IMG/VR virus record: IMGVR_UViG_3300045988_121535
Strand: one strand, 5' to 3'
Origin: a virus
DNA: 54,879 nucleotides
Shown: piece by piece, positions 1 to 54,879 of the stretch
Layout: each line of letters starts with the position of its first letter
Position numbering within the stretch: the stretch's first letter is position 1
Made by a program: the position numbers and the translations under genes
The notes under the pieces: generated by a model
The model's database searches: none
Seen by the model: the letters and a program-made list of their open reading frames with translations, nothing else
What the model was told of the DNA's origin: nothing

Positions 1-110
1 AGGCGGAAACGGGGCTACACTGGCAGGCGGATACGGGGCTAAACTGGCAGGCGGAAACGGGGCTAAACTGGCAGGCGGAAACGGGGCTACACTGGCAGGC
101 GGAAAACATT
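1..110 (+). repeat. 24-nt tandem repeat (aaactggcaggcggaaacggggct-like), about 4.5 copies
   Basis: Direct inspection; same unit as the array at the window end. Confidence 0.9.
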
Positions 111-2984: not shown

Positions 2985-3228
2985 AGTTTGTTTTTGTTTG
3001 AACGCAGACATTAAAGGAAAGGATGGCATTTGTCCTTGCTATCAGTGCGAAGAAAGGGCTGTCGGGTGCCATTCTTCCTGTGAAAAATTTGGTTTTTGGA
3101 GTGAAAACCATAAGAAAAACAAAAGGGAGATTCAAAAGAAAGTATACATAGAACGGCAAGCTGATTATAGGAGAAAAGACTATCTGCAAAAACGCAGAGC
3201 GGAAAGAAAGAGAGGGAACTATGAATAA
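2977..3228 (+). CDS. small Cys-rich basic protein
   Basis: 83 aa with CxxC pairs and a K/R-rich C-terminus; ATG overlaps the MBL stop. Confidence 0.4.
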   Translation: MAKVCFCLNADIKGKDGICPCYQCEERAVGCHSSCEKFGFWSENHKKNKREIQKKVYIERQADYRRKDYLQKRRAERKRGNYE

Positions 3229-3643
3229 GTGCATTTTCATTGGGCGAACCACGAGGGACATAGAGCTGCGGTATACGCAAAGCGCAAATCCGTTGGCGGT
3301 CGGGAACACGAGCCTTGCTGTAGAATCTGGATACGGAGAAAAGAAGAAAACGTATTTTTTCAACATAACAGCTTTCGGCAAAACGGCAGAAACAATGGGG
3401 CAGTTTGTAAAGAAGGGTACGAAAATTGCGGTCGAGTGCGAAGCCAAAGAGGATGAATACACAAACAGGGAAGGAAACAAGGTCAGACAGGCTTCTTTCA
3501 TTGTCAAATCCTTTGAGTTTATGGAGAAAAAAGCCGCAAACGGAAACGCGCAGCAGCAAGGGAAAAATGAAATGCCGCAGGATAACGGAAACGGTTTTTA
3601 CCCTGTGAACGAAAGCATTGAGGACGACGATTTGCCGTTTTAA
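3221..3643 (+). CDS. ssb: single-stranded DNA-binding protein
   Basis: OB-fold SSB N-terminus (MNKCIFIGRTTRDIELRYT), Gln/Gly-rich linker and acidic tail DDDLPF. Confidence 0.9.
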   Translation: MNKCIFIGRTTRDIELRYTQSANPLAVGNTSLAVESGYGEKKKTYFFNITAFGKTAETMGQFVKKGTKIAVECEAKEDEYTNREGNKVRQASFIVKSFEFMEKKAANGNAQQQGKNEMPQDNGNGFYPVNESIEDDDLPF

Positions 3644-3820: not shown

Positions 3821-4075
3821 TTGAGATATTCGGAATATCTGATGAAGAATTTGAAAGAGTTGAAAAAGAGGTTAATCGGAAAAGGTGGTAAGATTTATAT
3901 ATCAAATTCTCTAGTATGGGAATATAACGGAGAAAAACTCCGTGTTGTTGAATGGGCAGAAAGATTAGGGGTTACTCCTCATTGTCTATTACACAGAAAG
4001 GAGTTGGGGTGGGACCTCGAAAGAATATTAACCACTCCAGTAAAAGGTGACAATAATGGGAAAGCCAAATTATAA
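3821..4075 (+). CDS. small HTH protein resembling homing-endonuclease DNA-binding (NUMOD-like) module
   Basis: Segment VVEWAERLGVTPHCLLHRKELGWDLERILTTPV; weak RBS; overlaps the next gene in another frame. Confidence 0.3.
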   Translation: MRYSEYLMKNLKELKKRLIGKGGKIYISNSLVWEYNGEKLRVVEWAERLGVTPHCLLHRKELGWDLERILTTPVKGDNNGKAKL

Positions 4076-4637
4076 ACAGATATATGCAATTAAGGCAGAA
4101 CGAGAGGGCAGAATTAAAAAAATCTGCCCGAACATTCCGTATTCAAGCGGTATCTATGTGTTTTATAGGACTGATGAGGCGCAAATTCGTCGGGCGTATT
4201 GCGGTCAAGCAATCAATTTGTGCGAGAGGTGCGCTTCTCATTTGGGTGAATACGACCATATCGCATTAAGTCTTAAAAAGCATGGATTTTACAGTGGCGA
4301 AAATCCGTATGGTTGGAAACTGGCATTTAAAACTTGCCCTAAGAGCGAGTTAGACGAAAGAGAGGTTGCAACGATTAAGTCATTCGCAGATGACGGATTT
4401 CAAATGTATAACGTGACCGCAGGTAGCCAATCAATAGGAAAGCTTGTGACAGGGCAATATAAGCAGCCTAAAACCTATTCACAAGGCGTACAGCAGGGCA
4501 GAAAGAATCTTGCGAAAGAATTATCGCATATTGCAGAAAAGCACCTCACAATCGAAATTAGGGCGGATAAGAGGGGCAATAAGATTTCAGAACGGCAGTA
4601 TGAGAAATTTATGGAGTTGATGAAAGGTGGCGAATAA
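4056..4637 (+). CDS. GIY-YIG family nuclease (homing-endonuclease-like)
   Basis: GIYVFYR...AYCGQAINLCERCASH...E...N pattern; ATG 4056 with AAAAGG RBS. Confidence 0.7.
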   Translation: MGKPNYKQIYAIKAEREGRIKKICPNIPYSSGIYVFYRTDEAQIRRAYCGQAINLCERCASHLGEYDHIALSLKKHGFYSGENPYGWKLAFKTCPKSELDEREVATIKSFADDGFQMYNVTAGSQSIGKLVTGQYKQPKTYSQGVQQGRKNLAKELSHIAEKHLTIEIRADKRGNKISERQYEKFMELMKGGE

Positions 4638-4639
4638 CA

Positions 4640-4948
4640 ATGAGCGGCGGAAGTTGGAGTTATCTATACTCAAAGGAAGTTGACGAGCTTGTGCAGTATG
4701 GAAGTATTAGATTGTTAGAAGAAATGGCTGACTACCTTAATTCGAGTGGATATGAAGATGTGGCAAAGGATGTGAGGAGATTAGTCGAGTATATCAAATC
4801 AGCCAGAATCAGAATTGAAACGCTTCACGAAATGCTCAGTCCTGTTTTTAAGGCGGTTGAGTGGTACGATAGCAGCGATTGCGGGAAAGATTCAGTTATC
4901 AGGGCAATAGAAGATTACAGAAATGGAAGGGCGGCGATTGATGATTGA
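4640..4948 (+). CDS. hypothetical protein
   Basis: 102-aa ORF; 4-nt overlap with the next gene. Confidence 0.45.
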   Translation: MSGGSWSYLYSKEVDELVQYGSIRLLEEMADYLNSSGYEDVAKDVRRLVEYIKSARIRIETLHEMLSPVFKAVEWYDSSDCGKDSVIRAIEDYRNGRAAIDD

Positions 4949-5910
4949 GATATGGGTTGCCATACCAGGGAAGTAAAAACTCTATTGCAAAATGGCTAAT
5001 ATCGAATTTGCCTTCTGCGGATACGTTTGTAGATTTATTTTGCGGTGGCGGTGCTGTTACGCATTGTGCAATGTTAAGTGGAAAATGGAACAACTTTATT
5101 ATGAATGACATAGACGCAAGGCTGCCTATTCTATTCAAGGATTGCGTATACGGAAAGTATACAGTTGAAAACAGGAGAGAATGGGTTGATAGGGAAACAT
5201 TTAACAGGATGAAAGACAAAGATGCTTACATCGCTCTTGTCTGGTCGTTTGGGAACAACGGAAAGAATTACATATACGGCTCTGATATAGAAAAATTTAA
5301 AAAAGACTATCACAGAGCGGTTTATTCAAACGATACAAGTATTTTGGAAAAGTATGGATACAAAATAAATCCTTCAAAATTAAACGATGTGTATGGGCGT
5401 TATCTTGAGTTTAACAGGCAGATAAAGAAGTTTGCAAGAAATGATTTGGGCATCCTTTCAAGACAAATAGAAATAGAACGCCTGCAAAGCCTGCAAAGCC
5501 TGCAAAGCCTGCAAAGCCTGCAAAGCCTGCAAAGCCTGCAAAGCCTGCAAAGCCTGCAAAGCCTTGGCGTTGATTACAGAAGCGTTAAAATTCCGAATGA
5601 CGCAGTGATATATTGCGATATTCCATACGCAGGAACAAATTGTGGAAAATATCAAGGATTTAATCACGGAGAATTTTGCGAATGGGCTGAATGGCAAGAT
5701 AACATTTTTATATCAGAATATCAAATGCCAGAAGCATTTATCCCGATAGCAAAAACAACAAAAAGAGTCTTGTCTGCGGCAAATGGCAATAGCAAGGTAG
5801 CAACAGAATACTTGTTTACCAACCGAAAAACATACAACAGATTTTCAAAGGAGAGAAAAGAAAAAATAGGTCTTGAAATGGCAAGCCAATTAAGTTTGTG
5901 CAATTTGTAG
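4945..5910 (+). CDS. N6-adenine DNA methyltransferase, Dam-like (D12 class)
   Basis: N-terminal YQGSK...FCGGGAV (FxGxG AdoMet motif) and C-terminal DIPY (DPPY variant). Contains an in-frame (SLQ)9 repeat in the TRD region. Confidence 0.8.
   Translation: MRYGLPYQGSKNSIAKWLISNLPSADTFVDLFCGGGAVTHCAMLSGKWNNFIMNDIDARLPILFKDCVYGKYTVENRREWVDRETFNRMKDKDAYIALVWSFGNNGKNYIYGSDIEKFKKDYHRAVYSNDTSILEKYGYKINPSKLNDVYGRYLEFNRQIKKFARNDLGILSRQIEIERLQSLQSLQSLQSLQSLQSLQSLQSLQSLGVDYRSVKIPNDAVIYCDIPYAGTNCGKYQGFNHGEFCEWAEWQDNIFISEYQMPEAFIPIAKTTKRVLSAANGNSKVATEYLFTNRKTYNRFSKERKEKIGLEMASQLSLCNL
5481..5561 (+). repeat. perfect 9-nt microsatellite (cctgcaaag)x9 inside the Dam-like MTase ORF, encoding (LQS)9
   Basis: Direct inspection: 81 nt of uninterrupted 9-mer repeats. 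Confidence 0.95.
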
Positions 5911-5931: not shown

Positions 5932-6246
5932 TTGAGAATTTACATAAGCGGTGCTATTACTGGCACAGAGGATTTCAGAGAAAGATTCCTTGAGGCGGAA
6001 AAGGAACTGATTGCAGCAGGACATGATACGGTAAATCCTGCGAGGTTGAATGACATTATGCCAAAAGATGCGACACATGAGGAATACATGAGAATGTCTT
6101 TTGAGTTGCTCGATATTTGTGATGCAATTTATATGTTGGATGGATGGGAAAGCAGCAAAGGGGCAAATCAAGAATACGGTTTCGCCAAAGGAAAGGGAAT
6201 TGAAATTTATGGTTGTATAGAGAGGTGGAGGAATGAAATTCGTTGA
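5932..6246 (+). CDS. DUF4406 (nucleoside 2-deoxyribosyltransferase-like) protein
   Basis: TTG start with GGAGG RBS; MRIYISGAITG...NP...CDAIYMLDGWESSKGA signature. Confidence 0.6.
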   Translation: MRIYISGAITGTEDFRERFLEAEKELIAAGHDTVNPARLNDIMPKDATHEEYMRMSFELLDICDAIYMLDGWESSKGANQEYGFAKGKGIEIYGCIERWRNEIR

Positions 6247-12357: not shown

Positions 12358-12429
12358 ACAGAAATTAGCCCTGTATGGTAATATGACGCTGTATGGGGCT
12401 TTTCTCAAAATGAAAGGGTGTGTAATAGA

Positions 12430-13554
12430 ATGGGAAAAGACCTTAGAGGTAAAGAATTAGGCATTGGTATCAGCCAACGGAAAGACGGAATGTACACAGG
12501 ACGATTTACAACAAAATCCGGAAAACGGAAACAGAAATACTTTCATAAGTTGCAGGAGTGCAGGGCGTGGATGGCAGATGCACAATTTGAGGATGAGCAT
12601 GGGGATGTTTTCTTTTCAGATTCTCCAACTGTTAATGCGTGGTTCGACTATTGGCTTGAAGAAGTAAAAGGGAATGGAATTAGAATTTCAACAAAAAATA
12701 ACTACGAAAACCAATGGAAAAATTCAGCTTATTCAGCGATAGGAGAAATGGAATTAAAGGACGTAAAACCTATTCATTGCCAAAAAATATTAAACGATTT
12801 AGCCGCAAATCATAAGAGCAGCACGGTTAAGGTATACAGGACTTTGATGTGGTCTGTTTTCGAGTGTGCTGTTGAAAATGATTTCATCCAAAAGAATCCT
12901 GTCGAAAGAACAAAAGTTACAGGCGGAGAAAGAACAGAAGGGAAGCAGGCTCTTACGTTGGACGAGCAGAAGCTTTTTCTTCAAGAATCAAAGAGGTATG
13001 CTTATCACAACGGGTTGGCTTTTGTTTTGCAGACAGGGATTCGGGTTGGAGAATTGATTGCGTTAAAGTGGTCTGATGTAGATTTTAAAAATCGAAAAAT
13101 AAAAATACAGAGAAGTGCATCGGAGGTCGCGAAACAAGGATTTGTAATCGGAGAACCTAAAACAAAAAGCGGGTGCAGGGAAATACCACTCACAAAAGAA
13201 GCTATCAATATTTTATATAATCAAAAAGAGAAGGATTCTCAAAACAAAATCATTCCAATCCAGTATGCAGATTATATCTTTCTGAACAAAAACGGAAATT
13301 TAATTCAAAAGTCAGCGTATAATCAAGGAATATATGCTATTTGTAATAGATTGGGAATGAGAAAGTTCTCAATCCACTTGCTAAGGCACACATTCGCTAC
13401 GAGATGTATAGAAAGTGGTATGCGCCCTAAAACACTGCAAGCGATCCTAGGTCATAGCAAAATTGAAATGACGATGAATTTGTATGTTCATGTAACGGAT
13501 GAATCCAAACTGGAAGAAATCGAAGCAATAGAGAAAAATTTAAAATTGGTGTAG
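12430..13554 (+). CDS. int: tyrosine site-specific integrase
   Basis: C-terminal catalytic box HLLRHTFATRCIESGMRPKTLQAILGHSKIEMTMNLYVHV (R...HxxR...Y). Confidence 0.95.
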   Translation: MGKDLRGKELGIGISQRKDGMYTGRFTTKSGKRKQKYFHKLQECRAWMADAQFEDEHGDVFFSDSPTVNAWFDYWLEEVKGNGIRISTKNNYENQWKNSAYSAIGEMELKDVKPIHCQKILNDLAANHKSSTVKVYRTLMWSVFECAVENDFIQKNPVERTKVTGGERTEGKQALTLDEQKLFLQESKRYAYHNGLAFVLQTGIRVGELIALKWSDVDFKNRKIKIQRSASEVAKQGFVIGEPKTKSGCREIPLTKEAINILYNQKEKDSQNKIIPIQYADYIFLNKNGNLIQKSAYNQGIYAICNRLGMRKFSIHLLRHTFATRCIESGMRPKTLQAILGHSKIEMTMNLYVHVTDESKLEEIEAIEKNLKLV

Positions 13555-13811
13555 AAATTGGTGTAGAAATAAAAAAAACATACCTAGGATGCCTTGAATT
13601 ATCAGTTTTTTTAATAAATGTATACATTTTCTGCTGAAAGTGATATGTGAAATTTTATTCAAATAAAAATAACTTGTTATAACTTTATTTTCAAGGGTTT
13701 TAAGCAATTCATACAAAAATGATAAACATTGAATAACTTTTCAAAACCAATGAATAACTTTCAGAAAAATGGTGTAGAATTGGTGTAGTGGTGTAGAATT
13801 GGTGTAGAAAA
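13546..13811. promoter_or_regulatory. attP-like region: six GGTGTAGAA direct repeats (two at 13548-13565, four at 13771-13807) flanking an AT-rich core with TGAATAACTTT repeats
   Basis: Direct inspection; lies immediately 3' of int. Confidence 0.45.
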
Positions 13812-41508: not shown

Positions 41509-41754
41509 GCTCCGCGCCTCCTTTCTTCGTCCCGCTCCGGTAAATTAAAAAAGCCACAGAAAAAGATTTTACTCTCATTCTGTGGCGTGTTGGTATCTTC
41601 GTGAAAAACTGGGGTGCCGTCCTTACCTGCCGAATCATTGACCGCAACGGCAGCAGGTCAACATCCGTTAAATTGTTTTTTTGATTTAAAACAATCATAC
41701 AAAAAATTATTCTGATTGTCAATATAAAATTTAAAAACTGGTTTTTCTGTTTTT

Positions 41755-41860
41755 AGATTAAATTTACTAGTTGTATTATAAATTACTAGTTAGATTTAAT
41801 TACAACTATGAATTTTAAATTTACTAGTTTTGTTTTTTAATTACTAGTAAGATTCAATTT
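41755..41860. promoter_or_regulatory. four spaced TTACTAGT(T/A) palindromic repeats (one perfect TTACTAGTAA)
   Basis: Direct inspection: about 25-30 bp spacing, between the XRE gene and the putative terS. Confidence 0.45.
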
Positions 41861-54177: not shown

Positions 54178-54879
54178 ATGGGAATGAAAGGATATAAAGG
54201 TTTTCGCAAGGGGCTTATTTGCAAAAGCAAGCAGTACGCAGAGAACACGATTTTTGAAGAAAGCGAAGCTAATATTTGCGTGTTCTGCAAAAATCCTATG
54301 GACGTACTTGACTATTATCCGTTAATTGATAATAACGGCGAAATGTGCGAATTTTCGGAAGTAGAAGCAATGGACGAAACTCTTACAAATGACGAGAAGA
54401 AATATTGCACAAAGAAACTAAAAATCGGCGCAAGGCTGTCTTTAGTAGAATTTATTAAGGCAAGTTTTGACGTAACCTATCGGCAGATTAAAGAAGAAGT
54501 TGATAATGTTTCAGAAAAAGAAAATGTCGTAGACAACGCTAAACTGGCAGGCGGAGACAACGCTAAACTGGCAGGCGGAAACGGGGCTAAACTGGCAGGC
54601 GGAAACTGGGCTAAACTGGCAGGCGGAGACAACGCTAAACTGGCAGGCGGAGACTGGGCTACACTGGCAGGCGGATACGGGGCTAAACTGGCAGGCGGAA
54701 ACGGGGCTACACTGGCAGGCGGATACGGGGCTAAACTGGCAGGCGGAAACGGGGCTAAACTGGCAGGCGGAGACAACGCTACACTGGCAGGCGGAAACGG
54801 GGCTACACTGGCAGGCGGATACGGGGCTAAACTGGCAGGCGGAAACGGGGCTACACTGGCAGGCGGATACGGGGCTAAA
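54178..54879 (+). CDS. tandem-repeat protein, N-terminal Cys-containing domain plus 8-aa A[KT]LAGG[NDY][GNW] repeats; 3'-truncated at window end (continues at 2..292)
   Basis: ATG 54178 after GGGGAGG RBS; open to the last base of the window (234 codons). Confidence 0.65.
   Translation, partial: MGMKGYKGFRKGLICKSKQYAENTIFEESEANICVFCKNPMDVLDYYPLIDNNGEMCEFSEVEAMDETLTNDEKKYCTKKLKIGARLSLVEFIKASFDVTYRQIKEEVDNVSEKENVVDNAKLAGGDNAKLAGGNGAKLAGGNWAKLAGGDNAKLAGGDWATLAGGYGAKLAGGNGATLAGGYGAKLAGGNGAKLAGGDNATLAGGNGATLAGGYGAKLAGGNGATLAGGYGAK
54530..54879 (+). repeat. 24-nt tandem repeat array, at least 14 copies (same unit as at 1-110)
   Basis: Direct inspection. Confidence 0.95.

Follow-up and report, generated by a model that had tools for sequence, protein, structure and literature searches.

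A perfect in-frame 9-nt repeat in a phage adenine methyltransferase gene lies in a conserved leucine-rich tract of variable length

The stretch of viral DNA analysed here (54,879 nt, IMG/VR record IMGVR_UViG_3300045988_121535; hereafter the window) carries, inside a gene for a D12-class adenine methyltransferase, a perfect tandem array of a 9-nt unit that encodes nine consecutive Leu-Gln-Ser triplets. This array is most likely a recently expanded and homogenised allele of an L-[Q/E]-[S/R] tract, a tract that is a previously undescribed hallmark of a large, mostly phage-borne D12-class subfamily. We favour, with a probability of roughly 0.6, the reading that slippage drives a polymorphism in the length of a helix or linker, that the enzyme largely tolerates it, and that the last unit forms strand beta3 of the catalytic core.

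The array and the gene that contains it

Read directly from the letters, positions 5481-5561 are exactly (cctgcaaag)9, and Tandem Repeats Finder (TRF) reported a period of 9 with 9.4 copies, 100% matches, zero indels, and a score of 170 for the slightly longer interval given in Table 1. In codon phase the unit is CTGCAAAGC, the nine copies of which in the window all lie head to tail (0.65 expected); none of 100 shuffled sequences reached nine copies, and the unit has no occurrence elsewhere in the window. The count of nine is that of the assembled contig, in which the perfect array measures 81 bp. Its translation is (LQS)9, residues 180-206, followed by L207. A minus-strand ORF over the same region (5458..5697; ALQALQ...) was dismissed as a mere shadow of the repeat.

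Table 1. Features of the methyltransferase gene and of its neighbours, in window coordinates
Feature	Position	Strand	Basis or remark
D12-class (alpha-group) N6-adenine DNA methyltransferase ORF	4945..5910	+	321 aa; ORF list, Pfam, phrog_56, Foldseek
Motif I, FCGGG, aa 32-36, part of the AdoMet-binding loop	5038..5052	+	sequence reading; aligns to FCGG of T4 Dam
Perfect 9-nt array, CTGCAAAGC x9 in codon phase (5482-5562)	5480..5564	+	TRF, pattern search
Last LQS unit and L207 (aa 204-207), modelled as strand beta3	5554..5565	+	AlphaFold; profile alignment
Motif IV, DIPY, aa 225-228, catalytic loop	5617..5628	+	sequence reading; aligns to DPPY of T4 Dam
196-aa protein, PHROG 19106 (function unassigned)	4047-4637		two genes upstream of the methyltransferase
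DUF4406 / nucleoside 2-deoxyribosyltransferase-like gene	5932-6246		directly after the adenine methyltransferase
C5 cytosine methyltransferase, 478 aa	6233-7669		Pfam match in three separate stretches

The methyltransferase ORF starts with TTG, which overlaps the stop codon of the upstream gene, and its homologues begin MRYGLPY. The product matched Pfam PF02086 (MethyltransfD12) over aa 7-243 with 49.9 bits against a cutoff of 22 (E 4.6e-13), and it also matched PHROG 56, annotated as DNA methyltransferase. Across 67 homologues, F32, G34, and G35 of motif I showed no variation and D225, P227, and Y228 of motif IV were invariant, the second position of motif IV being Ile and not Pro. The array is placed between these two motifs, with 18 residues from the end of the tract to motif IV, and the order of motif I, variable region, and motif IV is the alpha-group arrangement. 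These observations bear out an earlier note on this DNA, made from its letters alone, in what it had described: a perfect ninefold 9-nt array that encodes (LQS)9 in frame between an FxGxG and a DPPY-like motif of a D12-class enzyme, the last point being supported both by the Pfam score and by structural matches to Dam enzymes (see below). The NCBIfam model of the canonical Dam (TIGR00571) was matched with 41.9 bits, below its cutoff of 114.85, and over aa 5-69 only; by this score the window enzyme, although Dam-like in fold, does not belong to the canonical Dam enzymes that target GATC.

Conservation of the tract and differences in its length

A tract of the form (LQ[S/R])n was found at the equivalent place in 120 of the 120 best matches, down to 55% identity. 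An exhaustive HMMER search of 1.84 billion representatives returned 2642 clusters (50% identity) at E <=0.001. Tract statistics were taken from the best 150 of these 2642 clusters, which are 37-59% identical to the query and 146 of which have motif IV, and units were counted as in-phase hydrophobic-x-x triplets of the L-[Q/E]-[S/R] type. At least four in-phase units were present in 139 of the 146 motif-IV representatives. Across the 146, the unit number had a median of 9 (interquartile range 7-11, maximum 28) and the distance from the end of the tract to motif IV had a median of 18 aa, the same as in the window. The first position of the unit is Leu in 82% of cases, while the second is Q (38%) or E (37%) and the third S (32%) or R (29%). 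Since nine units is the family median, only the perfection of the DNA units is special in the window, and the word "unusual", which the earlier note had applied, does not fit a Leu-x-x tract that characterises the whole subfamily.

At the DNA level, the 27-mer (CTGCAAAGC)3 was found at 19 IMG/VR loci, 18 of which lie at the same position of D12 methyltransferase ORFs. The longest pure CTGCAAAGC runs inside IMG/VR contigs have 7 units, and 10 or more perfect units stand at the very start of contig L059 (IMGVR_UViG_3300001478_000122, positions 1-90), which opens within the array of a homologous methyltransferase gene; phages other than this one thus have long perfect arrays of the unit, and an assembly can stop at them. 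In further lineages the pure arrays use different codons or double units of 18 nt, e.g., CTACAGAGC x5-6 and TTACAGAGTTTAGAGGGC x4, and the same tract residues are written with different codons by lineage (Ser as AGC, AGT, TCC, or TCG; Leu as CTG, CTA, TTA, or TTG). Distant homologues from cultivated phages, namely Lactobacillus phage Lc-Nu, a Cylindrospermopsis virus, Lactococcus and Leuconostoc phages, and the marine podophage Lau218, have 6-14 in-phase units, and identity between their DNA units is only 51-76%. Members of the family occur in 220 records of Lactococcus phages. Such varied codons and diverged DNA units, with the residues kept, indicate that the period-3 leucine pattern is selected at the protein level, as judged from these sequence comparisons.

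A nucleotide search of 50,697 deposited phage genomes with the methyltransferase gene gave no match, the only matches being distant ones at the protein level, and a scan of one genome per bacterial species gave no close relative. A full-text search of the literature for the peptide strings and for in-frame repeats in phage adenine methyltransferases returned no description of the tract.

Among close relatives, tract length differs on otherwise nearly identical backgrounds. Contig L001 (Logan, ERR10077706) has 3 units where the window has 9, on flanks that are 100% identical over 1704 bp upstream and have 2 mismatches in 1297 bp downstream (99.85%). L002 (JGI 3300056157, 54 kb), an independent contig, also has 3 units against the window's 9, with flanks 99.8-99.9% identical. 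The protein that they encode, P0002, matches that of the window apart from one residue and the six absent units. Within clusters of at least 90% identity, the unit number ranged from 2 to 11 in length steps that were multiples of 3 residues, and five proteins that are 100% identical outside the tract (P0004, P0288, P0291, P0293, and P0296) have 5-8 L-Q-x units; the counting script, which took in the in-phase IES unit before them, gave 6-9. Many pairs at least 99% identical outside the tract differ in unit number; the protein collection merges identical sequences, so that the fraction of such pairs shows many alleles per background and not a rate. A search of metagenome contigs with exact 32-nt flanks gave 3 loci, too few for a copy-number distribution.

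Some alleles contain higher-order blocks, e.g., (LQSLQSLQSIQS)n, as slippage or unequal exchange would leave if it moved several units together. With 3 units in the majority of the proteins that cluster with the window's, an expansion from 3 to 9 units in the lineage of the window would be the simplest history. On these comparisons, copy number clearly changes faster than the remainder of the protein. The earlier note had proposed that the copy number is labile and that its changes, in steps divisible by three, would not switch the gene off, and on both points the relatives agree with it: 9 and 3 units stand on flanks of 99.8-100% identity, 5-8 units on one protein background, and all alleles seen are in frame and differ by multiples of 3 codons. 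The polymorphism observed is one between samples.

Besides the methyltransferase repeat, this region departs from L002 chiefly through an indel or duplication (window 3212-3520, L002 3274-3440) within a 140-aa ORF (3221-3643) that we read as putatively SSB-like; its counterpart in L002 has 173 aa.

Structural position and possible consequences of tract length

The AlphaFold model of the window protein (pLDDT 82, pTM 0.79) has a Dam-type fold. Its top Foldseek matches were T4 Dam, Mcbe1 (7m6b), and EcoDam, with E values of 3e-6 to 5e-5, probability 1.0, and target-normalised TM-scores of 0.5-0.59. A sequence search of the PDB gave weak Dam matches only, and no solved member of the subfamily. 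In the model, residues 182-203 are helical at low confidence (pLDDT 54-69), whereas L204-L207 form a strand directly before the conserved D210-Y211 (pLDDT ~88 for residues 201-210). The 2-unit allele P0012 was again modelled with its last unit as a strand (183-186), preceded by a linker (165-179) with a pLDDT below 50; across both modelled alleles, the pLDDT of the tract or linker was 38-69. In the family profile, the segment QSLQSLQSLGVDY...DIPY aligned to residues 145-174 of T4 Dam, QNCDKIIFSSLHF...DPPY, with LQSLG paired to IIFSS, which equates the end of the tract with the final part of a helix and the strand before motif IV. The DNA-reading beta-hairpin of T4 Dam and EcoDam reportedly lies N-terminal of the helix that precedes beta3. 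The models and the T4 Dam alignment thus place the tract at what would be the junction of the DNA-binding region and the catalytic core, outside the DNA-reading element. The earlier note had put the array inside the target-recognition region, which is right only in the linear scheme of motifs; the last unit models as beta3 and the other units align with the helix before beta3 in T4 Dam. The window protein has the Pfam family, the fold, and the motif order in common with T4 Dam and E. coli Dam (1q0s, 1yf3, 2g1p, 4rtq), but these enzymes have a single ordinary helix where its subfamily has 3-28 Leu-x-x units, and it differs from them further in having DIPY instead of DPPY as motif IV and an extra helical segment (aa 113-178) before the tract.

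On the favoured reading, in which we infer the slippage mechanism, the structural role of the tract, and the absence of an effect on specificity, the identical 9-bp units would misalign during replication or recombination (slipped-strand mispairing), so that units are gained or lost in steps of three codons while the reading frame and both junction sequences stay unchanged. The junctions are IER-LQS at one end and LQS-LGVDY at the other; since all units are identical, gain or loss would keep both, and slippage would be tolerated. The last unit would supply beta3, the earlier units would replace the helix that leads from the DNA-binding region back to the core, and extra units would lengthen a solvent-exposed, poorly ordered helix or linker. 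With every unit the same, nearly any number above ~2-3 may be tolerated by the enzyme, and the effect of a change would be at most quantitative, with neither an on/off switch nor a changed recognition sequence. One aspect speaks against a merely tolerated linker: the median tract of 27 aa far exceeds what one helix and one strand need, and it is kept despite the decay of the DNA repeats. This suggests that the long tract has a function of its own, which the favoured reading leaves unexplained. The strict period of 3 matches no standard amphipathic helix, and the tract is modelled with low confidence.

The sole experimental clue as to whether tract length affects specificity comes from Skunavirus, in the study of Murphy et al. 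2014. In Lactococcus 936-type phages, M.Phi15I has been linked tentatively, by association and alignment and not by direct proof, to CC(6mA)G, and M.Phi93II and M.Phi145II have been linked in the same tentative manner to CY(6mA)G (PMC4190342). By our own alignment, M.Phi15I (300 aa) has ~8 units and M.Phi145II (337 aa) has ~19, the two being 85% identical, and the set of M.Phi15I, M.Phi93II, and M.Phi145II has ~8, 12, and 19 units at 84-85% identity. The legend to Figure 3 of that study states that 55 and 15 residues were taken out of the alignment, and the tract is passed over without comment (PMC4190342); the removed residues are probably the tract, because the 40-residue gap matches the difference in tract length. 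These enzymes belong to the same subfamily as the window protein (~31-35% identity by tblastn); they too are phage-borne orphan alpha-group enzymes encoded in the replication module, with a Leu-x-x tract at the same place and large length differences among close relatives, but their units are mostly L-Q/E-Q/R and their DNA units have diverged. A change of specificity, which the earlier note had considered possible, finds no support here. The comparison of 8 with 19 units, tentatively assigned CCAG and CYAG, points to little effect of tract length on the core motif as far as these assignments go, and a difference of 11 units with a nearly unchanged 4-bp core argues against a change of specificity of the kind known from the spacer of EcoR124I/II. 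The slightly relaxed motif of the longer allele, CYAG against CCAG, leaves room for a modest effect of length.

That spacer is the best-known precedent for an in-frame repeat in a methyltransferase system. In the HsdS subunits of EcoR124I/II, one extra TAEL unit turns GAAN6RTCG into GAAN7RTCG (PMC7383803), and LEAT repeats have a similar role in Neisseria gonorrhoeae (NgoAV) (PMC6789123). As in the window, the amino acid repeat is in frame and its unit number varies between alleles, a variation ascribed to slippage or unequal crossing-over. The HsdS repeat, however, is a coiled-coil spacer of 4-residue units between two recognition domains, and it alters the spacer of a bipartite target, whereas the window enzyme is a single-chain, Type II-like protein with one DNA-binding region and a 3-residue unit, its tract lying between that region and beta3 and not between two target-recognition domains. 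Phase-variable Type III mod and Type I hsd genes (phasevarions) also have a repeat within a methyltransferase gene that is polymorphic between strains, and the window gene indeed contains such a simple sequence repeat (9 nt x 9.4, perfect). Phasevarion repeats, in contrast, shift the frame with their units of 1, 4, or 5 nt and so turn bacterial chromosomal genes on and off, while a 9-nt unit can never shift the frame and the gene in question is a phage orphan methyltransferase.

Tract length might nevertheless matter to the enzyme in a graded manner, as the earlier note had proposed. If the number of units set the geometry between the DNA-binding region and the core, alleles could differ in efficiency, stringency, or sequence preference, and slippage would supply a phage population with a series of methyltransferase variants against changing host restriction. 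No other part of the protein varies as much as the tract, which has several alleles on identical backgrounds, and long tracts are conserved across the family; the tract also lies directly before beta3 and D210-Y211, at the T4 Dam position just before motif IV. The more relaxed CYAG of the longer Skunavirus allele and the TAEL (PMC7383803) and LEAT (PMC6789123) precedents would fit such tuning as well. We consider it unlikely all the same, given that 8- and 19-unit enzymes have, on the tentative assignments, essentially one 4-bp core motif, that 3 to 28 units coexist with conserved catalytic motifs, that extra units are without fixed structure in the models, and that the DNA-binding region is also anchored N-terminally, so that a one-sided spacer cannot simply shift it. 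Broader still, and in our view doubtful, is the proposal that the tract is an evolvable module of thousands of phage orphan adenine methyltransferases, its length, reset by slippage, tuning stringency, processivity, or the spacing or pairing of protomers, and its variants standing as bet-hedging against host restriction. The pairing of protomers is itself the core of another proposal, in which a leucine-rich helix pairs with a second protomer or a partner and its length, as a ruler, sets the spacing of active sites. A period-3 Leu pattern kept over up to 28 units, even without DNA repeats, does speak for a defined structure; a monomer would not readily accommodate so many exposed leucines, and low confidence in a monomer model is often seen for interface segments. 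Yet known coiled coils have periods of 3.5-3.67, well away from a strict 3.0, and the tentative motifs of the relatives are short and contiguous, not bipartite, and we regard a ruler of this kind as improbable.

Two further readings deny the length difference or its coding significance. Tandem arrays longer than the k-mer of an assembler may resolve to a wrong copy number, and the nine copies in the window might then be a mis-assembly with no real length difference in this phage. It fits this suspicion that an array of at least 10 units is cut off by the end of contig L059 and that the exact window protein was absent from a collection of 15 billion proteins. Independent 9-unit alleles with variant units (L004/L071 and L058) would be much harder to mis-assemble, however, collapse errors would not inflate a true 3 to 9, and finished genomes of cultivated Skunavirus phages differ by 11 units. 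The presence of the tract in cultivated phages with diverged DNA units likewise shows that its length differences are not artefacts of metagenome assembly, and an artefact in the window is quite improbable. As for the DNA itself, a perfect direct repeat with the palindrome TGCA in each unit could serve as iterons or protein-binding sites, the LQS coding being incidental. A purely DNA-level role was ruled out by the persistence of the amino acid pattern across codon changes and in unrelated phages with diverged DNA units; with 18 of the 19 IMG/VR loci at one methyltransferase position and no further unit anywhere in the window, any such role is hardly credible.

Whichever holds, natural alleles that differ solely in unit number form a series in which the question of length is directly testable. 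If tract length is functional, phage orphan methyltransferases would possess a built-in, frame-safe mutational dial, and if tuning is true, this would be a graded, never-off counterpart to bacterial phasevarions. Even if length is irrelevant, the tract is the hallmark of a large subfamily, with a period-3 leucine pattern that has no obvious standard structure. In practice it is a trap, since assemblies are broken or distorted by it and relatives look less alike than they are, a protein that differs by one residue and the repeat scoring merely 94%; the unit number could also serve as a typing marker for closely related phages.

Phage setting and other repeats in the window

The window belongs to a temperate siphophage and encodes an integrase, RecT, a tape measure protein, a major head protein, a portal, and a large terminase, and related contigs measure 54-56 kb. 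Together with the two genes that follow it, the adenine methyltransferase gene is part of a DNA-modification cluster (Table 1), the gene order of which is identical in L001 and L002. The split Pfam match of the C5 methyltransferase suggests a large insertion in that predicted protein. From the Pfam and NCBIfam matches of the adjacent genes, no cognate restriction nuclease was recognisable next to the adenine methyltransferase, and the label of a phage-borne orphan, which the earlier note had used, is therefore reasonable for a gene that sits among those of a temperate phage. [quoted passage not shown] In the early region upstream of the cluster, L002 encodes a metallo-beta-lactamase-fold protein (2186-2899; window ~2265-2984) with a weak precomputed match to the anti-Pycsar Apyc1 family, a possible anti-defence gene.

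A second in-frame array, with a 24-nt unit, is split over the ends of the window (1-105 and 54538-54879; 4.4 and 14.2 copies, 88-95% identity). It codes for octapeptides of the form (A/T)(K/T)LAGG(N/D/Y)(G/N), and the protein runs on into the start of the window. The 54-kb contig L002 begins at window position 86, within this array. This array seems to interrupt assemblies, and a circular or circularly permuted genome is probable. Short direct repeats at 13543-13570 (AAATTGGTGTAG x2.3) and 13770-13809 (TGGTGTAGAATTGGTGTAG x2) lie just downstream of the integrase gene (12418-13554); they may be arm-type or attachment-site repeats of the integrase. Lastly, an AT-rich degenerate tandem repeat at 41753-41848 (period 37 x2.1 or period 19 x4.7), apparently between ORFs of at least 150 aa, could be an origin or a regulatory region.
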